Shown here: positions 11,134 through 18,671 of the stretch, in pieces | How the letters are laid out: each line of letters opens with the position of its first letter | Numbering within the stretch: the first letter of the stretch is position 1 | NCBI GenBank assembly: GCA_050749785.1 | Contig: JBOGSA010000007.1 | Location: 1-44,680 of the forward strand | Origin: Candidatus Micrarchaeales archaeon | GTDB lineage: Archaea > Micrarchaeota > Micrarchaeia > Micrarchaeales > CABMGC01 | Length of the DNA stretch: 44,680 bases | Direction of reading: 5' to 3' | Notes under the pieces: generated by a model | What the model was told of the DNA's origin: nothing | Database searches by the model: none | The model's input: only the letters and a program-made list of their open reading frames with translations | Made by a program: the position numbers and the translations under genes

Positions 11134-12095
11134 ACAACGATCACCTTGTCTACTCTATACCTCTGCTCTATGCTGCATCTGTCCAGCGAAGAATCCTGTC
11201 CATGCCTCAGCATCCTTTCCCCTACAAACGCTATCATCGCGCCGTTATCTGCGTTGAACTCATCCGGTGCGTAGCCAAAGCTAATTTTATTCTCCTTTGC
11301 AACTTCACCAAGCATTTCCCTCAGTCTTTTACTCTGTGCAACCCCTCCGCATACGCACAGCTCCCTGCTCTTTGTAAGCATGAGTGCACGTTCCGTTGCT
11401 TCACAGAGCATTGAGAATGCAGTTTCCTGCAATGAAAAGCAGATGTCCTCAACTTTATTTTTTCCAACCATCTTTAACGCGCTTGTAAGAAGACCTGTGA
11501 AAGCAAAGTCCATCCCCTTGACCGTGTAAGGCAGCCTCACATATTTGCCATTTTGTGCAAGCTTTGCAACCGTGGATCCCCACGCGGGATTAAGCCCTGC
11601 CCCGCGTGCGAAATTGTCAATCATGTTGCCCACCCCAATATCAAATGTCTCTCCAATAATCCTGTAGGAATTCCCGTATCTTTTCAAAATCTGCGAATTG
11701 CCTCCACTCACATACAAAGCTAGTGGTTCCTTCATATTGGAAATCGATTTTGTAATCTCTACATGTGCGACTCCATGATTCACCTGTGCAATTCCCACAT
11801 CTAGCTTTTTTGCAATTGCCTTTGCGGTAAGCTCTCCAACCTGTAGACAGGGTCCTAGGCCCGGACCCCGAGTATAGCCAACTCCCTCAATATCACTTAT
11901 CTTAAGCCCGGTTTTCTTCAAGGCGAGGCTTACCACCTCTGTGGCATTTTTGGCGTGGAACTCTGCGACCTTTCCAGGAATGAGGCCTTTGTCAGTTATC
12001 TTGTACATCCTCTTCTCATTTGCGATTACCTCTCCATTGTCTACTATTCCTACTCCAAATGTGTGCGCACTACTTTCAATCCCAAGTACCAGCAT
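11130..12095 (-). CDS. kae1: tRNA N6-adenosine threonylcarbamoyltransferase Kae1 (KEOPS)
   Basis: GIESSAHTFGVGIV N-terminus and the VNHGVAHVEI metal-binding His pair. It is unfused from bud32 but translationally coupled to it. Confidence 0.9.
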   Translation of the reverse strand: MLVLGIESSAHTFGVGIVDNGEVIANEKRMYKITDKGLIPGKVAEFHAKNATEVVSLALKKTGLKISDIEGVGYTRGPGLGPCLQVGELTAKAIAKKLDVGIAQVNHGVAHVEITKSISNMKEPLALYVSGGNSQILKRYGNSYRIIGETFDIGVGNMIDNFARGAGLNPAWGSTVAKLAQNGKYVRLPYTVKGMDFAFTGLLTSALKMVGKNKVEDICFSLQETAFSMLCEATERALMLTKSRELCVCGGVAQSKRLREMLGEVAKENKISFGYAPDEFNADNGAMIAFVGERMLRHGQDSSLDRCSIEQRYRVDKVIVV

Positions 12096-12148
12096 CCGAC
12101 GAACCTCTCCTAAGGAGTATAAATAAACAAATTAATATCATTGAGTAT

Positions 12149-12355
12149 ATGGAGGAGGAAGAACCTAACAGCGAGATAATCCACTTGATAAGGCGTTCAC
12201 AGAATATCAATCCACAAGAGCGGATAAAGGCAGCAAAGGATCCGAAGCTACCTGAAGAATTCTTAAAGAAACTAAAGTTTGATCCAGATGAGACTGTCAG
12301 GGAAGTTGCCAAGCGCATAGTGGAAAAGAGGTTTCCCGATAAAACGAAGGCGTAG
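12149..12355 (+). CDS. Small HEAT-repeat-like protein (68 aa)
   Basis: The ATG at 12149 gives MEEEEPNSEI...DPDETVREVAKRIVEKRF, a PBS-lyase/HEAT-like D-x-D-x-x-VR-x-x-A pattern. The longer track ORF from 12020 overlaps kae1 antisense. The stop codon abuts the left target-site duplication of the island. Confidence 0.5.
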   Translation: MEEEEPNSEIIHLIRRSQNINPQERIKAAKDPKLPEEFLKKLKFDPDETVREVAKRIVEKRFPDKTKA

Positions 12356-12364
12356 CAACTCAAC
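12356..12364. repeat. Left copy of the target-site duplication CAACTCAAC
   Basis: Identical 9-mer at 18585-18593. It extends to 10 bp if the following G is counted. It directly abuts the left TIR. Confidence 0.75.
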
Positions 12365-12438
12365 GGCTTTGTGTAAATAGAGGTGTAATAAGGGCACTTT
12401 ATACACATTTTTAGGACTTCTTACACATAAATAAGGAC

Positions 12439-13257
12439 ATGGCAGTTAAGCAAATGTGGTCATTTCGAATAAGCGGAGATGATGAAACAAATGTTCATGG
12501 AAAACAATATCGTGTTCAGATAAGCCAATTTGCCAAAGACAGTGGTGTCAAAGGATCAGTTCAAAATATTAAATTTAAATCAGAGATAGAAGTAAAATTG
12601 GCATTAGAAGATAAAGCAAAGTCGCAGGAATTTAAAGATGAATTATCCAAAACTTTAGATAAGGAAAAGCTGGATAAATTGAAATTTTCCGAACTATATG
12701 AATTTCAGGAAGAAGAGGCAAGATATCCCGATTTTAGTGTAATTCGTGAAGATGAATTAACTGAAATGGTTTGGGCACTACAAGGTGCGGGAAAAGTATT
12801 TTTCGAATCTGCAAAAGCACAGAACTCCATGCTTAAAAGTATAGTTGAAATTATGGTTGCTCGTGATCATAAAAAAGAGCGTGGTCTTTTAGGAGCTTTA
12901 AATTTAGAAATAGGCTTCATAAATAAGAAATTAGATGATATGATTAAACAAATAGAAGAGAATAAAGAGGTCAATTTTAAATTTGAGGTCAATTTTAAAT
13001 TTGAACATCATTGCCTTCTGAAAGCACTGGTAGAACCAGCTTGGGCAGATGATGATACTTTTCTACAGCTCACTTCAGACTTATTTCATGGAATAAATAG
13101 AACAGATAAACCTCCATTTAATTCTCTCCCTAATAAAGAGGATAAACTGAAAGAACTACAAGCTCTTAAAAAAGTAGCTACAGAGTATTATAATATCATC
13201 AATAAACGAAGCGAGCAATTAGATAACCTGATAGATAATAATATAAAATCTAACTAA
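12439..13257 (+). CDS. Hypothetical protein (272 aa, charged and coiled-coil-rich) with an in-frame 18-bp tandem duplication
   Basis: First gene of the island, ATG start. The N-terminal ~65 aa loosely follow an acylphosphatase-like pattern (G..V.G..YR......A...GVKGSVQN...), which is weak evidence. EVNFKF is repeated twice. Confidence 0.55.
   Translation: MAVKQMWSFRISGDDETNVHGKQYRVQISQFAKDSGVKGSVQNIKFKSEIEVKLALEDKAKSQEFKDELSKTLDKEKLDKLKFSELYEFQEEEARYPDFSVIREDELTEMVWALQGAGKVFFESAKAQNSMLKSIVEIMVARDHKKERGLLGALNLEIGFINKKLDDMIKQIEENKEVNFKFEVNFKFEHHCLLKALVEPAWADDDTFLQLTSDLFHGINRTDKPPFNSLPNKEDKLKELQALKKVATEYYNIINKRSEQLDNLIDNNIKSN
12967..13002 (+). repeat. Perfect 18-bp tandem duplication (gaggtcaattttaaattt x2)
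   Basis: Units at 12967-12984 and 12985-13002 are identical and in frame (EVNFKF-EVNFKF). Confidence 0.95.
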
Positions 13258-13277
13258 TCATAATAATAGGTGTATGT

Positions 13278-13760
13278 GTGTCCATGTATGGCGAATTCGC
13301 CCAAAAATTCCAAATTATAGTTGGACACGCTATGGAGACAGGCACACTTGAAAAAAGGATAATAATCCAAAAAATTGCATATCTTTTATATAGAAAAGGT
13401 GTCAATTTCGAATATACTGATTTTTCATGGTATTTACACGGAATATTTTCATGGAATTTGTGGTACGATATTATACATTTTTGGGATCCAGCCCCCCAAC
13501 TACTTTCTACTGAACAAGTAGCCTCAGTGAATAATGTTTTGGAGGATTTTAAAAAGGCAAATTTAACTACTTATTTCACTACTTCAAATGATTTGGAATT
13601 GATAACTACTATTTTATATCGGGCAAAATCACAATCAGACTTAAATTCTGAAAATACAAGTCTAATTAATGAAGTAATTGCACTAAAAGGTAAATTTAGT
13701 CAAGAGCAAATTAAAATTGCAATTGATAAAATCAAATTAATTGAATGGAATTTTAATTAA
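13278..13760 (+). CDS. Hypothetical protein, possibly DUF4065/Panacea (SocA-like antitoxin) domain
   Basis: 160 aa, 20 nt downstream of the previous ORF. RIIIQKIAYLLYRKG...FSWYLHGIFSWNLWYDI resembles the KLxKLLY...GP(V/I) core of DUF4065 as I remember it. This is not verified. An alternative ATG lies at 13284. Confidence 0.4.
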   Translation: MSMYGEFAQKFQIIVGHAMETGTLEKRIIIQKIAYLLYRKGVNFEYTDFSWYLHGIFSWNLWYDIIHFWDPAPQLLSTEQVASVNNVLEDFKKANLTTYFTTSNDLELITTILYRAKSQSDLNSENTSLINEVIALKGKFSQEQIKIAIDKIKLIEWNFN

Positions 13761-13863
13761 TATTTTTACAATTATCTAAATAAGAGGAAGTGTGAAAAAT
13801 ACTCTCACTTTTTACACAAAAGTGTAATAATGGGTTTTTAAGGCTTCTTTTCGTATATTTTTC

Positions 13864-14544
13864 ATGCCAAACAGCAAAGAGAACTTCTTACAGCTACACA
13901 AAGTAATTTTATCCCTAAGAAGACAGATCATAAATGAAGTAACTTTGGCAATAGCTAAAAAAGTTAGTGGCGGCCAATTAGATGACTACCAAATAGTTTG
14001 GAATCAGCTTCAGATAATAGCGACCCCTGTAATAAAAAATGTTCTTAAAAGGAAATTCAAAGGAGCAATTTTCATCGAAGCCAAAAGTAAATCTACCTAT
14101 CCAGATTTAAGAATGGAATGGCAGGGATTTAAAGTAGCAATAGATATTAAATCAAATGAATCTTCTAAGGACCCTTGGTATGACATAGCAAGATTAGACA
14201 CTATAATAGAAACTCGCATTAATCAGTATGATGAAGAATACGAAGTAGTTATAAAATACGATAGCAAAACTAAAAAATTGATTAAAATCTTTTTTGATAC
14301 TCTTAGAGATACAGTGGGAATTAGGAAAGAATGTAATGGAGTTAAATATCGGCCCTATGATGGTAAATTAAGACCTAAAACCTGGAAAGAATTTGATGAA
14401 AATATTAATTATTGGAAGACGAAGGAAGAATTTTTGAAGGGTATTGAAAATTCTAAGAAACATAGATGGAAAGAGTCGGCTAAACAGCAATTAAAACATC
14501 TATCTAAAGAAGAAAAGAAAGAATTTCGTGACCTTTACACTTAA
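13864..14544 (+). CDS. Probable type II restriction endonuclease (PD-(D/E)xK)
   Basis: TYPDLRMEWQGFKVAIDIKS gives PD-x12-D-I-K. The gene is convergent with, and overlaps, the methyltransferase gene: the stop codons share one TTAA at 14541-14544. Confidence 0.55.
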   Translation: MPNSKENFLQLHKVILSLRRQIINEVTLAIAKKVSGGQLDDYQIVWNQLQIIATPVIKNVLKRKFKGAIFIEAKSKSTYPDLRMEWQGFKVAIDIKSNESSKDPWYDIARLDTIIETRINQYDEEYEVVIKYDSKTKKLIKIFFDTLRDTVGIRKECNGVKYRPYDGKLRPKTWKEFDENINYWKTKEEFLKGIENSKKHRWKESAKQQLKHLSKEEKKEFRDLYT

Positions 14545-15467
14545 GCTTTTTTTATTAAAGGTAATTTCATCGTTTTTGTTTTGTCTTTATTTATTCTTTG
14601 TTCTGTAGAGATGAGATGTGGTGCTACTGCATCATAATCTTTTTGTCTAATTGTAATTACCTTATTCAAATAAAGGGAAACATATTTACCCCCCAACATC
14701 GTCGGCTCAGAAGCTTCGACATTTTCTTTTGCTATTTTAACATATTTTTCATCTACATCAATTCCAATATATTTTCTACCCATTCTCTTTGCGGCTACTG
14801 CCGTGGTACCTGTGCCAACCATAGGATCAAAAATTATATCCCCTTCATCTGTTGTTGAAAGAATCATTCTTTCTACTAAATGTGGGGGTAATTGACATGG
14901 ATGGGCGTTCCGCCTAACCTTATGACGAATACGATGAATATCATTCCAAATATCACTTGCTACTTTACCGTAGGGATGAAGTAAATCTTTTTTGCCTCCC
15001 CAGTCTGCTAATAAATCTCCCTTTCTATCCCTTTGGTGTGGGACTCTAACTATAAAAGTTTTAGAATTAGATGTTTTTGTGTACCACAATATTCCGTAAT
15101 GTGCTGGTAAAAGTTTTGAATTTGTTGGGGATCCAAGAGCATCCCACGCTATCCAATGTCTAAATACCGCTAATGTATTGAGATGACATGCGTGATGTAT
15201 CAGCCATTTTGGAATATTTATTACAAATAATGATCCACTCGGTTTTAGTATTCTTATGCACTCAGAAAGCCATTCATTGCACCAAGCAATATATTCTTTT
15301 TCTGTTAACTCGTCTTTATAATTTGAATATTTTTTTCTTAAATTATAGGGAGGGTCAATAAAAACCATATCTACACAATTTTCGGACATTTTCCGCATAA
15401 GTGAGATACTATCCCCCAAAATAATTTGATTTTCCATTTTTTTAATATTAATCATATTAAACACCAA
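14541..15467 (-). CDS. DNA methyltransferase, beta-class N6-adenine/N4-cytosine (PF01555-like)
   Basis: Motif IV, FIDPPYNL, is near the N-terminus. Motif I, FDPMVGTGTTAVAAKRMGRKYIGIDVD, is near the C-terminus. That IV-then-I order marks the beta group. The track start is TTG at 15467; an ATG lies at 15455 (MINIKKMENQ). Confidence 0.85.
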   Translation of the reverse strand: MVFNMINIKKMENQIILGDSISLMRKMSENCVDMVFIDPPYNLRKKYSNYKDELTEKEYIAWCNEWLSECIRILKPSGSLFVINIPKWLIHHACHLNTLAVFRHWIAWDALGSPTNSKLLPAHYGILWYTKTSNSKTFIVRVPHQRDRKGDLLADWGGKKDLLHPYGKVASDIWNDIHRIRHKVRRNAHPCQLPPHLVERMILSTTDEGDIIFDPMVGTGTTAVAAKRMGRKYIGIDVDEKYVKIAKENVEASEPTMLGGKYVSLYLNKVITIRQKDYDAVAPHLISTEQRINKDKTKTMKLPLIKKA

Positions 15468-15606
15468 AAATTCGGTAAAAGCATACGCTAACTGATAATG
15501 TTTCCTTACCTATAACACCCAGAATCTGAAGGTAATTTGTATAGCGATGCCTAACCGCATTTCTTGTAGATGAATTGAGGAAGTTTAAATTTTTATAGGT
15601 TTCCAT
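15457..15606 (-). CDS. Small 49-aa ORF immediately upstream of the methyltransferase; possible controller, leader or spurious
   Basis: ATG 15606-15604 gives METYKNLNFLNSSTRNAVRHRYTNYLQILGVIGKETLSVSVCFYRIFGV, with stop 15459-15457. The stop lies 1 nt before the methyltransferase ATG at 15455. No motif recognised. Confidence 0.2.
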   Translation of the reverse strand: METYKNLNFLNSSTRNAVRHRYTNYLQILGVIGKETLSVSVCFYRIFGV

Positions 15607-15607
15607 C

Positions 15608-16819
15608 TTAATCCTCCTGTAAGAAGTTAGGTGTGATACCTAACTCATTTATCTCGTGAATAAGCACTACAATATTATGGCAAAGTATCTTTAATAGCAT
15701 CTCATTTATCTGTGCCGTTTTACTTCTACTCTTTAATCCGTCTCCAAACTTCATCTTAATCATGTGGAAAGTTGTTTCGATATTACTTCGATTATGATAG
15801 TGGTTCATGTAGTCGTCTCTGTTCATCATGAAATAATGATACATCTTTCTCCAGATTTTTCCATGTCTTGGAAGAGATGCAGAATTTGACTTGAAAGGAA
15901 TGAATGCTGTTCCTCCTATTTCATCAATATATTCCATATTCGGTCTTGCCAAGTATTCCTTGTCTGCACTCATCTGCTCTATATTGAAGCCCTTTTCATG
16001 AGTCTCTTTAGCTAATGGGATGAAGAAAGGCGAATCATTAGGGAACTCATCAGTTACTTGAACTGCGGTAATTATGTTTGTCTTAGTTCCACAGCAAGCG
16101 TGAACCTTGATCCATTTGTGTTGTTGGCCTGTTCTATGCTTGGTATAAAGATACTGCCCAAAGCTCGTGGTGTGGAAGCCTGTGCTGTCTATGGCAAACT
16201 TGGTTTCAACGCTTTTGAAAGGCATGGAAGAGAGACTTATGAGCTTATAAAGAATTGGTGTGATGTCCTCTCTTTGCATAAAATGGCCTGTAGAAGCAAA
16301 GCAAGGTGTTTTGACTACCAAACCCTTCTCTTTGGCTATCTTGAGGTCTGAAGCGAACCTACGCAGGCTGAATTGAGTATAGACCTTTAGGGCGGAAGCA
16401 AAGAGATTATCAGATTGCGGTATCTTAGGTCTGCCAAAGGTATAGGTTGGTTCATCTACTTCGCTAATTAAATCTTTTAGAAGATCCATGAACTTAGACT
16501 TCTCTTCAGTCTGGCTTTTGTTGTAAGCTGGCCAGTTTTGTGAGTAGGTTACTTTTTTGGTAATGGTTGTAGTACCATCGTCATTGATCTGTTTCGTAAT
16601 CGTTATCTCTACTGCGAAGATGTGCTTGCATTTTAGACCTCTTTCTTGGTAGTCGGGGCAATTGCATATAGACTTGTCAAGCCTAAGAGTAACTTCGTAA
16701 TGCTTATTAGTTGTCTGGGAGGGAACTAACCATGTGTTTCCATTCAGCTTAACCTTTCCAGCCTGTGCAATCTGGTTTCCCTTTTCTTTTCTTATTTGTA
16801 GTAGTTCTTGGATTTGCAT
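15608..16819 (-). CDS. DDE transposase (IS4/IS5-type) with an N-terminal SWIM zinc finger
   Basis: SWIM: CNCPDYQERGLKCKHIFAV. DDE candidates: FAIDSTGFH and MSADKEYLA. The C-terminal signature is Y-x2-R-x3-E-x6-K (YHNRSNIETTFHMIKMK). Confidence 0.85.
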   Translation of the reverse strand: MQIQELLQIRKEKGNQIAQAGKVKLNGNTWLVPSQTTNKHYEVTLRLDKSICNCPDYQERGLKCKHIFAVEITITKQINDDGTTTITKKVTYSQNWPAYNKSQTEEKSKFMDLLKDLISEVDEPTYTFGRPKIPQSDNLFASALKVYTQFSLRRFASDLKIAKEKGLVVKTPCFASTGHFMQREDITPILYKLISLSSMPFKSVETKFAIDSTGFHTTSFGQYLYTKHRTGQQHKWIKVHACCGTKTNIITAVQVTDEFPNDSPFFIPLAKETHEKGFNIEQMSADKEYLARPNMEYIDEIGGTAFIPFKSNSASLPRHGKIWRKMYHYFMMNRDDYMNHYHNRSNIETTFHMIKMKFGDGLKSRSKTAQINEMLLKILCHNIVVLIHEINELGITPNFLQED

Positions 16820-16835
16820 AATATCATTATTTGTT

Positions 16836-16933
16836 ATTAGGTATCTAATTCCTATAATAGTATTAGATATCTAAAGATATATATACTTTAGCTTTAGATA
16901 CCTAAAGCTTTATAAAGCAATAGATACCTAAAG
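16836..16933. promoter_or_regulatory. Array of four 12-bp (pseudo)palindromic sites TTAGATA(T/C)CTAA in the divergent intergenic region
   Basis: The copies are ttaggtatctaa at 16836-16847, ttagatatctaa at 16862-16873 (a perfect palindrome), ttagatacctaa at 16893-16904 (within gctttagatacctaaagc) and tagatacctaaagc at 16920-16933. Spacing is 26-31 bp. The array lies between the transposase ATG (16819) and the DUF488-fusion ATG (16940). Confidence 0.7.
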
Positions 16934-16939
16934 CAGATT

Positions 16940-17740
16940 ATGAAGCTTCAAAAAGTTCCGTCCAGAAAATTAAACCAAAAAGAATATGTTAAATGGTTAA
17001 TCATAGTGCCTCCAAAAGAAGTGGATCAGTTAGGATGGGAGGATGGGCAAAAATTAAAGAGTTTTGTAGAAAAAAATAATTTAGTTATAATAATAAGCAA
17101 AGAACCCTCTTATGATGAATTTAAAACAAAAATTGCACAATTATTGAACACTAAATCTCAAGGTTTTACTTGGAAAGAGATTAAGGAAAAATTAAAGCTT
17201 GAAATAAAAGTACCTAATAATAAATGGGTTAGGAAATTAGAAAACGAAATAAGTCTTAAAAGAATAAGCCATAATGGAGAAAAATATTGGTATATTGATA
17301 AAAAGGGAGTTACAGTTTATACATTAGGCTATGAGGGAATAGCTATTGATCAGTTTATTAACTACCTAAAGAAAAATGGTATCGAATGTTTAATTGATGT
17401 TAGAGAATTACCTTTAAGTCGTAAAAATGGTTTTTCTAAATCTGTATTAAATGAAGCTTTGGAAAAAAATGGTATTGTATATAGACATTATCCACAATTA
17501 GGCTCTCCAAGAGAATTAAGGCACAAATTATGGACTGAGGGCAATTATACCGAATTCTTTAAAGATTATGAAAAATGGCTTTCTTCACCATCAGCTACAA
17601 CTTATATTGGAGATGTTGAAGGGCAAGCTCATATTCGAACTACTGCAATAATGTGTTTTGAAAAAGACGTCGAAAAATGTCATAGAAGTGTAATAAAGAA
17701 ACGCTTAATCCATGATGGGTTCAAGGTAATAGACCTATGA
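16940..17740 (+). CDS. AbrB/SpoVT-like plus winged-helix plus DUF488 fusion protein
   Basis: The N-terminus, WLIIVPPKEVDQLGWEDGQKLKSFVEKNNLVIIISKE, looks like an AbrB-type swapped hairpin. The middle, GFTWKEIKEKL...NKWVRKLENE...GEKYWYI, looks wHTH-like. The C-terminal DUF488 signature is YTLGYEG...IECLIDVRELPLSRKNGFSK...NGIVYRHYPQLGSP...CFEKDVEKCHRSVI. Confidence 0.7.
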   Translation: MKLQKVPSRKLNQKEYVKWLIIVPPKEVDQLGWEDGQKLKSFVEKNNLVIIISKEPSYDEFKTKIAQLLNTKSQGFTWKEIKEKLKLEIKVPNNKWVRKLENEISLKRISHNGEKYWYIDKKGVTVYTLGYEGIAIDQFINYLKKNGIECLIDVRELPLSRKNGFSKSVLNEALEKNGIVYRHYPQLGSPRELRHKLWTEGNYTEFFKDYEKWLSSPSATTYIGDVEGQAHIRTTAIMCFEKDVEKCHRSVIKKRLIHDGFKVIDL

Positions 17741-18519
17741 CTTTTGAGAGGAAGCGAATTCTAATTGTGGTAAAAACTTACCCTAATCTGAGTAGAAAAT
17801 ATGTTGAGACTGTATGTGTGGGCGGTTTAACAGATAATGGAAAATGGATTAGAATTTTCCCAATAAGATTTAGGCAATTACCTTTTAATAAAAGATTTAG
17901 TAAATTTGATATTATTGAAGCCGAAGTAGAACCTACACATGATAAGTTTGGAAGGATAGAAAACCATACAATTAAAGATACAACGATAGAAATCTTAGGT
18001 AAATTACCTGCTACCCCCGAGAATTGGGAACGCCGTAAAAAATTGGTTCTTAGTCATTTAGATAAATCGCTGGAAGAATTAGAATTGAAAAAAGAATCCG
18101 ATCATGTGACTATGGGTATAATAAAGCCACGGGAAATTATAGATTTTTATCGTAAAAATATTGAAGAATTTAGAGAATGGGAAGCGGAATTAATACAGGG
18201 AAATCAGAAAACATTAATTGAAAAAATAACAGGTAAAAAATACGAGAGTCCTTTAGAGAAAATTCCTTACTGGATGGGTTACCACTTTTATTGTCAGGAT
18301 GAAAGATGTAATGGGCATAATATGATGTGCGAAGACTGGGAGATGTTAGAACTCTTTAGAAATATGCGAAAAAGGGAAGGTAGTGACGAAAAGGCTTTCG
18401 AAAAAGTAAAGCAGAGCTATTTTACATGGATGAAAGAAAGAGATATTTATTTTGTTGTAGGTACTGAAAGTAAATGGAATAATTTCCTGATAATTGGTAT
18501 ATTTTATCCGCCTAAATGA
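17737..18519 (+). CDS. Uncharacterised protein with a C-x4-C-x2-H-x3-C cluster, translationally coupled to the DUF488 gene
   Basis: 260 aa, with a 4-nt ATGA overlap with the preceding gene. The conserved-looking N-terminus is KRILIVVKTYPNLSRKYVETVCVGGLTDNGKWIRIFPIRFR. The Cys/His cluster is YHFYCQDERCNGHNMMCEDWE. Confidence 0.6.
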   Translation: MTFERKRILIVVKTYPNLSRKYVETVCVGGLTDNGKWIRIFPIRFRQLPFNKRFSKFDIIEAEVEPTHDKFGRIENHTIKDTTIEILGKLPATPENWERRKKLVLSHLDKSLEELELKKESDHVTMGIIKPREIIDFYRKNIEEFREWEAELIQGNQKTLIEKITGKKYESPLEKIPYWMGYHFYCQDERCNGHNMMCEDWEMLELFRNMRKREGSDEKAFEKVKQSYFTWMKERDIYFVVGTESKWNNFLIIGIFYPPK

Positions 18520-18584
18520 TCTATGGACAACTTCTTACACAAAAGGCCGACTTTATACACAAAAGTCACTAAATACACAAAGCC

Positions 18585-18593
18585 CAACTCAAC
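18585..18593. repeat. Right copy of the target-site duplication CAACTCAAC
   Basis: Identical to 12356-12364. It directly follows the right TIR. Confidence 0.75.
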
Positions 18594-18671
18594 GTTAGCT
18601 TTAAATAGATTAAGAAGCATAATCATCTCTATAAAAGTCAGGCATCCTAGGCCTCTTTTTTGTTGATTTTC

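Follow-up and report, generated by a model that had tools for sequence, protein, structure and literature searches.

Few prokaryotic domains that lack a demonstrated biochemical activity are, to our knowledge, as widespread as DUF488. Work by Burroughs and Aravind from 2023 reportedly places the DUF488 and DuOB families in a RapZ-C-DUF488-DUF4326 clade of the rhodanese-phosphatase superfamily and predicts DNA-end processing in virus-host conflict. The combination of the Pfam families DUF488-N3a and DuOB is already known as PADLOC candidate PDC-M19, a two-family cassette (CAS_00089) with 174 RefSeq instances (Payne et al. 2024, bioRxiv 10.1101/2024.01.29.577857). It is one of 145 “phage defence candidates” that were derived via “guilt-by-embedding” in BREX, DISARM, and type I restriction-modification (R-M) loci and were listed untested by the authors (Payne, Hughes, Fineran & Jackson; bioRxiv 10.1101/2024.01.29.577857). 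Another relevant protein is YeaO of E. coli, the product of a DUF488 gene. In a ΔyeaO strain, nearly all spacers taken up by Cas1-Cas2 came from the IS4 transposase gene insG, and the authors suggested that YeaO restrains IS4 mobilisation (bioRxiv 10.1101/2024.05.24.595836). Here, we analysed a stretch of 44,680 nucleotides (the window) from a Candidatus Micrarchaeales archaeon (contig JBOGSA010000007.1 of assembly GCA_050749785.1), in which two overlapping genes on a transposon, A and B, encode a DUF488 protein and a dual-OB protein (Table 1). Judged by sequence comparison, the pair is a further archaeal instance of the DUF488-N3a plus DuOB module. With moderate confidence, we read the locus as an autoregulated conflict module borne by a mobile element, which would combine recognition of DNA ends or single-stranded DNA (ssDNA) with DUF488 catalysis.

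Both proteins match the PDC-M19 profiles. Residues 93-258 of A align with PDC-M19A (PDLC04505; 7.8e-40, 135 bits), and residues 4-260 of B align with positions 2-262 of the 269 in PDC-M19B (PDLC04508; 6.4e-67, 224 bits). The cassette definition, FAM_02799>>FAM_02993, places A before B, as do the overlapping window genes. The sequence-only reading had considered the pair assignable to no named system; this must be withdrawn, as the pair is PDC-M19 and its domains are already in Pfam (DUF488-N3a, DuOB). The overlap that it had described is present as claimed: the two open reading frames (ORFs) are co-oriented, and ATGA at 17737-17740 supplies both the TGA stop of A and the ATG start of B. Homologues align with B from residue 1 (MT[FY]xxxxI..VKTYPNLS), which makes the ATG at 17737 its likely start; the alternative, from one gene caller, is a later start (P0001, 250 aa). 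The 4-nt overlap is kept in relatives.

Adjacency of the two genes in other genomes was the first of two tests set beforehand for the claim of a two-gene system, and both came out in its favour. We collected 46 cellular loci, 3 of which are interrupted by a contig end. In all 43 assessable loci a DUF488 ORF directly adjoins the DuOB ORF, lying upstream on the same strand in 41 and convergent in 2. On IMG/VR viral contigs encoding DuOB, DUF488 is adjacent in 40 of 40, which brings the combined count over assessable loci to 83 of 83. Homologues of A and B lie together in cells and viruses alike, and their adjacency is near-obligate. A word-indexed search returned 84 homologues of B, and a full profile scan (E <= 1e-3) returned 3352 clusters at 50% identity. 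The pair occurs in at least 14 archaeal and bacterial lineages, with archaeal hosts among the Micrarchaeota, Iainarchaeia, Bathyarchaeia, Thermoplasmatota, Methanosarcinales, and Heimdallarchaeia, and bacterial hosts among the Chloroflexota, Ignavibacteriales, Arenicellales, Actinomycetota, Eremiobacterota, and Planctomycetes. A homologue is found on 23 plasmids and also in cultured Gordonia phages. Relatives in culturable settings include gp42/gp43 of Gordonia phage Nymphadora and genes on Rhizobium, Pseudomonas, and Streptomyces plasmids. In crenarchaeal conjugative plasmids (pSOG2 (L100), NC_010597, and an S. shibatae plasmid), a DuOB homologue lies beside a tyrosine integrase, and no DUF488 neighbour was detected.

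Protein A consists of an AbrB/MazE-like β-domain (residues ~1-55), a winged helix (~58-119), and a DUF488-N3a domain (~125-266). Residues 136-256 matched DUF488 (PF04343) at 1.2e-31 and 110.3 bits against a cut-off of 22.2, and the protein also reached 32.6 bits for DUF488-N3a (PF22751; cut-off 27), which Pfam describes as the “active DUF488-N3 subclade”. Both scores lie above the Pfam gathering thresholds, which bears out the DUF488 assignment made from the sequence. The motifs T128-x-GYEG, D153-V-R-E, S160-RKNGF-x-K, Y181-x-H, LGSP, R194, C239-x-E241, and C247-H-R249 are invariant over 35 A homologues, and all are present in the window protein. Because these polar and cysteine active-site residues are invariant across the 35 homologues, A looks like an active enzyme fronted by two predicted DNA-binding modules. 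In the AlphaFold2 model of A (pLDDT 88.8), the DUF488 part found its best Foldseek matches among phosphatases of the protein tyrosine phosphatase (PTP) fold (SsoPTP, C. difficile PTP, PRL-1, and KAP), as well as tetrapyrrole/diphthine-methylase-like domains. Such a combination is expected from the placement of DUF488 in the rhodanese-phosphatase superfamily.

The winged helix proposed in the sequence-only reading is upheld by the model, in which residues ~58-119 form helices and a β-hairpin, and by Foldseek matches to the winged helices of SelB, Rpc34, ScpB, Fur, and MecI. The AbrB-like front end stands in part. Residues 2-52 were modelled as β-β-α-β-β (strands 2-11 and 14-22, helix 25-31, strands 39-44 and 47-52), weak matches to MazE occur in the N-domain of 8 of 18 A homologues, and one distant DUF488 protein encoded beside DuOB, the partner at L022, exceeds the cut-off of MazE_antitoxin (PF04014; AbrB/MazE/SpoVT superfamily) with 28.1 bits. 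The window protein itself, however, reaches 14.4-16.6 bits against a cut-off of 24.7 and is sub-threshold. The top 50 Foldseek matches to the full-length A model include no AbrB-fold structure, and PDB profile searches with A and with its N-domain returned nothing significant by sequence. The AbrB assignment is accordingly a suggestion from sub-threshold sequence similarity and predicted structure. N-termini of the DUF488 partners differ between loci, the DUF488-N3a core is constant, and the AbrB domain is missing from many A homologues, including forms of 150-220 aa.

In the second of the tests set beforehand, protein B matched no housekeeping family: a profile search found no sequence relative in the PDB, and the families recovered were Pfam DuOB (PF22557, “dual OB-containing domain”) and PADLOC PDC-M19B only. 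Because homologues at 47-60% identity to B bear precomputed PF22557 annotation, we consider B a divergent DuOB relative by transitivity. The AlphaFold2 model (pLDDT 89.2, pTM 0.87) contains two sets of strands of the β-barrel type, corresponding to two OB folds in one chain. Foldseek searches of the PDB with this model recovered an archaeal RPA filament, CST, Oxytricha TEBP-α, Teb1, the HIN-200 proteins IFI16, p202, and p204, RecO, and POT1, with probabilities of 0.87-0.99 for the best structural matches, and among viral models (BFVD) the best were baculovirus LEF-3 and phage SSBs. All the sequence features first noted in B were found: the N-terminal motif is KTYPNLSRKYVETVCVGGL, KTYPNLS...WIRIFPIRFR is conserved among homologues, and the Cys/His cluster C186-x4-C191-x2-H194-x3-C198 is followed by E-D200-W-E202. 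In an alignment of 33 diverse B homologues, P16, R39, P42, R73, E75, W97, D200, E202, and P258 are invariant. One whole subclade (P0068, P0073, P0075, P0078, P0080, P0081, and P0083) has other residues in place of the Cys/His cluster. Because of this replacement we interpret the cluster, from the sequence, as probably a structural zinc knuckle; its candidacy as functional core or hallmark of the family was rejected.

The pair sits in a discrete 6.2-kb transposon (12366-18584) with inverted termini and a perfect 10-bp target-site duplication. The termini are GGCTTTGTGTA (from 12365/12366) and TACACAAAGCC (to 18584), and the right transposon end begins 11 nt past the B stop. Subterminal repeats of the type ACTTNTWACACA(AAAG), at 20-nt spacing, occur three times at the right end and twice at the left. 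Outside the ends the window holds a single stray copy at 13807 (0.15 expected). This stray repeat, ACTTTTTACACAAAAGT at 13807-13823, lies between two cargo ORFs and the candidate R-M pair, and may be left over from an earlier left end that was shorter, with cargo added stepwise. The direct repeats ACTTNTTACACAAAAG were considered as att-like sites or as a long target duplication, and this was ruled out: they lie within the inverted termini as subterminal repeats, and the duplicated target sequence is the 10-bp CAACTCAACG. The element has a GC content of 30-38%, lower than the 44-48% of its flanks, and is inserted between the Kae1/Bud32 genes and an rpoD-L18e-L13-S9 ribosomal cluster. Four relatives share the design of terminal inverted repeats and target-site duplication, with different duplications of 9-11 bp: CTCGCTTCTG in L003, CTGAAGCCT in L009 (with 16-bp perfect inverted repeats), GATGGATCTG in L021, and TATTAAGCCCG in L001. 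L021 is the smallest element and contains little besides the transposase gene, A, and B. An exact-match search of metagenome contigs with the joined transposon flanks, that is, the empty target site, gave 0 matches.

Four copies of the 12-bp palindrome TTAGRTAYCTAA lie between the divergent start codons of A and the transposase gene. The spacing is 26, 31, and 26 nt, and each pair flanks a TATA-like box of the divergent promoters. The array is confined to this intergenic region, with no other copy in the window (4 against 0.52 expected; 0 of 100 shuffles reached 4). The earlier observations that the pair lies inside a transposon, next to an operator-like array, both hold, with the ends and the target-site duplication now defined. 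All 7 elements that combine this transposase with A and B have 2-4 such sites at the same positions. Their outer TTAG...CTAA is constant, and the centres are specific to each lineage and still palindromic (ATAT/GTAT, GCGC, GCAC, ACGT, or GTAC). As far as sequence can indicate it, positional conservation with co-varying centres is the signature of a dimeric repressor that co-evolves with its site. We found no TTAG...CTAA sites upstream of five sibling transposases that lack A, nor in the promoter of any other DUF488-DuOB locus. Because the sites are confined to loci with this form of A, its AbrB/winged-helix N-terminus is the putative binder, and the pattern points to repression of its own operon and of the transposase gene. 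A scan for sigma-70 promoters and intrinsic terminators was uninformative in this archaeal host.

The transposase belongs to a family with many members in DPANN archaea (2642 matches at E <= 1e-20). Sampled sibling transposons (L090-L098, from Diapherotrites, Aenigmarchaeota, and others) lack A and B and have type II or IIG R-M genes beside or divergent from the transposase gene: a fusion of N6_Mtase and Methylase_S in L090-93, an EcoRI-type methylase in L094, a methyltransferase-Mrr fusion in L095 and L096, and an Eco57I-type IIG enzyme in L097 and L098. The idea that A and B form a core which every member of the transposase family must have was rejected, since the siblings bear R-M cargo instead. 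Because sibling transposases carry R-M genes in the same slot, A and B are one alternative cargo among defence genes and are unneeded for transposition by this family. This equivalence of slots is our strongest contextual argument for a conflict function, and the SWIM-DDE elements look like a transposon family that ferries defence genes.

Neighbourhoods elsewhere are of a similar kind. Among 144 nearest neighbours in cellular loci, which were read qualitatively, we identified DDE transposase (6), ResIII (4), N6_Mtase (3), N6_N4_Mtase (3), PIN (3), HNH (3), HepT (2), ParE (2), EcoEI_R_C (2), Eco57I (2), and Mrr (2), with ordinary metabolic genes interspersed. Together with the inverted repeats and target-site duplication of the window element and the R-M cargo of its siblings, the R-M, toxin-antitoxin (TA), HNH, and transposase neighbours agree with the mobile-element and defence-type context that had been proposed. 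On viral contigs the neighbours include N6/N4 methyltransferases (8 of 130), large and small terminases, portal, Mu-F, integrases, and helix-turn-helix proteins of the Cro/CI type, in arrangements such as TerL-DUF488-DuOB-x-portal and ParB_N-methyltransferase-DUF488-DuOB-TerS-TerL.

In Gordonia phage Nymphadora (L099, NC_031061), DuOB gp43, annotated “hypothetical”, directly follows the immunity repressor gene gp44 with a 1-base overlap, and is co-transcribed with it within the integrase/immunity cassette. The convergent gp42 is annotated “HipA toxin” and is actually a DUF488 protein (2.8e-32 against the A profile). gp44 had been a candidate DUF488 fusion and was rejected, as the DUF488 gene is gp42. 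The same is true of phages Eviarto, BatStarr, TimTam, and Herod. A fusion of DuOB with a TIR domain (P0073) was found in soil metagenome contigs L087-L089, where it is 441 aa long. The gene upstream of this fusion was ruled out as a DUF488 gene; by eye, on these short contigs, it resembles a second, stand-alone DuOB paralogue.

The remaining genes of the element are given in Table 1. The sequence-only reading had placed an R-M system next to the pair, and the methyltransferase part of this claim is substantiated by an N6/N4 DNA methyltransferase gene inside the element. The adjoining orf226 has no match in Pfam, NCBIfam, PADLOC, or the PDB. It occupies the position where a cognate restriction enzyme would be expected, and relatives have a different 351-aa ORF (L001) or an Mrr fusion (L003) there. 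The possible TA pair of the sequence-only reading corresponds to orf272 and orf160, two further cargo genes for which the searches gave weak matches (Table 1). The transposase falls below the cut-off of the IS5-like family in NCBIfam. Upstream of Kae1, a 110-aa ORF (12076-12408, minus strand) starts at 12408, within the left transposon end; either its 5' end was supplied or replaced by the insertion, or the ORF is spurious.

Table 1. Coordinates of the gene pair, its predicted operators, and the other parts of the transposon (window positions).
Feature	Position	Strand	Description
Gene A	16940-17740	+	266 aa; AbrB/MazE-like β-domain, winged helix, DUF488-N3a; PADLOC PDC-M19A match
Gene B	17737-18519	+	260 aa; DuOB protein, probable Zn knuckle in second OB fold; PADLOC PDC-M19B match
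Four 12-bp palindromes TTAGRTAYCTAA, predicted operators	16837, 16863, 16894, 16920 (16837-16931)	.	between transposase start (16819) and A start (16940)
Left target-site duplication copy CAACTCAACG	12356-12365	.	perfect direct repeat of 18585-18594, directly outside the inverted termini
Left end	12366-12431	.	terminal inverted repeat G(G)CTTTGTGTA and subterminal repeats ACTTTATACACA (12396) and ACTTCTTACACA (12416), 20-nt spacing
orf272	12439-13257	+	weak acylphosphatase match (Pfam); no PDB relative
orf160	13278-13760	+	weak match (7e-5) to C-terminal part of PADLOC DarG model
orf226, candidate restriction endonuclease	13864-14544	+	convergent with methyltransferase gene, 4-nt overlap
N6/N4 DNA methyltransferase, type II-like	14541-15467	-	PF01555 1.2e-50; PADLOC MTase_II 4e-63
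DDE transposase (IS4/IS5-type DDE_Tnp_1), N-terminal SWIM zinc finger	15608-16819	-	PF01609 6.8e-23; SWIM 4.8e-6; divergent from A
Right end	18530-18584	.	subterminal repeats ACTTCTTACACAAAAG, ACTTTATACACAAAAG, and ATACACAAAG at 20-nt spacing, then terminal inverted repeat TACACAAAGC(C)
Right target-site duplication copy CAACTCAACG	18585-18594	.	direct repeat of 12356-12365

A role in conflict is supported because of the TIR-domain fusion, the defence-type neighbours, the R-M genes in the slot of sibling transposons, and the position in the Nymphadora immunity cassette. We propose that the module is self-contained and horizontally mobile, acts in defence or exclusion, and travels as cargo of a SWIM-DDE transposon. 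B would recognise ssDNA or DNA ends, for example on foreign DNA that is replicating or entering the cell. Translational coupling would yield A and B in fixed proportion, and a complex of the two is probable. The DUF488 domain of A, with its predicted rhodanese/PTP-like fold and invariant C...C-H-R site, may carry out transfer or hydrolysis of the phosphate or sugar-phosphate type, acting on the terminus of a nucleic acid or on a substrate derived from a nucleotide. B could present this substrate to A or activate the DUF488 enzyme. The N-terminus of A would bind the four TTAGRTAYCTAA palindromes and thereby repress its own operon as well as the divergent transposase gene. An antiviral phenotype is what we would expect from such a module.

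Several points weigh against this reading. The PDC-M19 label is itself a prediction only, and the searchable literature yields no experiment or functional study on a DUF488-DuOB pair. The structural comparisons are weak in places, with Foldseek E-values of 0.04-0.1 for A and low TM-scores of 0.2-0.36 for B, and B scores 22.2 bits against Pfam DuOB (E = 1.6e-4), below the gathering cut-off of 27. The one exception to the pairing that we met is the Sulfolobus islandicus conjugative plasmid pSOG2, where DuOB has no detectable DUF488 neighbour. The division of labour between the proteins may also differ from that proposed: the invariant R39, R73, E75, D200, and E202 suggest that B, instead of or besides A, could be catalytic, and the transposase instead of A could bind the operators. 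Finally, a position in phage packaging modules suits an element-serving or counter-defence role as well as it suits defence.

Other explanations draw on much of the same evidence. The module may be linked to transposition, with A repressing the DDE transposase and A and B together handling the DNA ends, hairpins, or single-stranded gaps left by cut-and-paste transposition of the IS4/IS5 type, so as to protect or repair donor and target sites or to limit transposition. Seven independent Micrarchaeota elements keep the transposase gene, operator region, A, and B in one arrangement as other cargo varies; L021, the smallest of them, has little more than these genes, and the right transposon end begins only 11 nt after the B stop. 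The fold of B, which is that of DNA-end and ssDNA binders, and the spacers taken up in E. coli ΔyeaO, nearly all from IS4 insG (bioRxiv 10.1101/2024.05.24.595836), would fit as well. Close transposases nevertheless move without A and B, bearing R-M genes; 76 of the 83 adjacent DUF488-DuOB loci have no such transposase nearby, and the pair is also found on phages and plasmids, which leads us to regard this explanation as unlikely. A broader form of it, to which we would give a slim chance, is that DUF488 and DuOB are dedicated to sensing and chemically processing the DNA ends or single-stranded intermediates that arise from IS4/IS5-type DDE transposases, and likewise from phage packaging and replication. 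Were this true, A in this Micrarchaeota transposon family would repress the transposase via TTAG-N4-CTAA and, with B, steer transposition intermediates. The pair would then represent a new class of transposon-encoded factor for transposition control and end processing, and the insG spacers of ΔyeaO would be explained.

An addiction module of the TA type that stabilises the element, in which one partner inhibits growth (for example, B by coating ssDNA or ends) and the other neutralises it and autoregulates through an AbrB/MazE-type domain, appears improbable to us. The MazE/AbrB-like N-terminus encoded by the upstream gene, the overlapping start and stop codons, the palindromic array over the promoter, and residence on transposons, plasmids, and prophages are all as such a module would have them, and several homologues carry the JGI label “antitoxin component of MazEF”. 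Both proteins are nonetheless large (266 and 260 aa), and neither matches a toxin family in Pfam, NCBIfam, or PADLOC. Many A homologues, including the 150-220-aa forms, do without the AbrB domain, and A has as its conserved core an enzyme domain whose active-site motif is intact and would be superfluous for a simple antitoxin. Counter-defence or DNA maintenance, in which the pair would shield or repair the ends or ssDNA of its element against host nucleases or DNA-damaging defences, strikes us as quite unlikely. It would account for the viral positions between TerL and portal or beside ParB-methyltransferase and TerS/TerL, for the recurrent neighbouring methyltransferases of the orphan type (8 of 130 viral neighbours), and for the likeness of B to RPA, LEF-3, and SSB. 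It sits less well with the cassette being found by PADLOC embedded in cellular defence systems, with the TIR-domain fusion, which suggests an effector role, and with the immunity-cassette position in Gordonia prophages, which suggests expression in the lysogen. Defence, transposition control, addiction, and element-serving roles are not mutually exclusive.

If the preferred reading of a conflict module is right and the pair is antiviral, it would represent a new immunity chemistry, in which a rhodanese/PTP-like enzyme is guided by a tandem-OB sensor, and one of few such systems common to DPANN archaea and bacteria. The module is compact, with two genes, and occurs in archaea and bacteria as well as on phages, plasmids, and transposons; it offers several handles: the candidate operator TTAGRTAYCTAA, a defined transposon, invariant residues in both proteins, and cultured relatives. 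SWIM-DDE transposons with either R-M genes or A and B as cargo suggest a way in which defence genes might pass between organisms with small genomes. Within the literature searched, the anatomy of the transposon, the operator array and its co-variation, the alternation of R-M and PDC-M19 cargo, the 83 of 83 adjacency, and the misannotated Gordonia phage genes are new.

Compared with described systems and families, the window pair shares features with several and coincides with one. Like RPA70, CST/Teb1, TEBP-α, POT1, the HIN-200 proteins AIM2/IFI16, and LEF-3, B has two OB folds per chain, and a probable zinc knuckle is inserted in one of them, as in DBD-C of RPA70. It differs from these tandem-OB binders in showing no sequence similarity to them and low TM-scores, in its invariant R39, R73, E75, D200, and E202, which they lack, and in the near-obligate pairing of its gene with that of an enzyme. 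Type II TA systems (MazEF, PrlF-YhaV, VapBC) resemble the locus in the swapped-hairpin-like N-terminus of the upstream protein, the overlapping ORFs, the palindromic operators, and residence on mobile elements, whereas the window proteins are far larger, the downstream B matches no toxin family, and the upstream A has a conserved enzyme domain, with an AbrB domain that the family as a whole can do without. The stand-alone YeaO of E. coli belongs to the same DUF488 domain family, and the only phenotype reported for it involves an IS4-type DDE transposase gene; it is a single-domain protein, whereas A belongs to the N3a clade, and the link between YeaO and IS4 is its authors' hypothesis. By analogy, a DUF488 gene that appears co-regulated with an IS4/IS5-type transposase gene here parallels the connection of YeaO with IS4 insG. 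With respect to the Pfam families, A passes both DUF488 cut-offs, and B is dual-OB yet below the DuOB threshold. The closest counterpart is PDC-M19, with strong hidden Markov model matches of both proteins, the same two-gene order, tight spacing, and an association with R-M genes. PDC-M19 was defined on RefSeq genomes, whereas the window instance lies on a metagenome contig of a DPANN archaeon. The window A also has an AbrB-like and winged-helix N-terminus, and the PADLOC model aligns from residue 93 onward. Unlike the cassette as defined, the window pair is part of a DDE transposon, with predicted operators common to the pair and the transposase gene.

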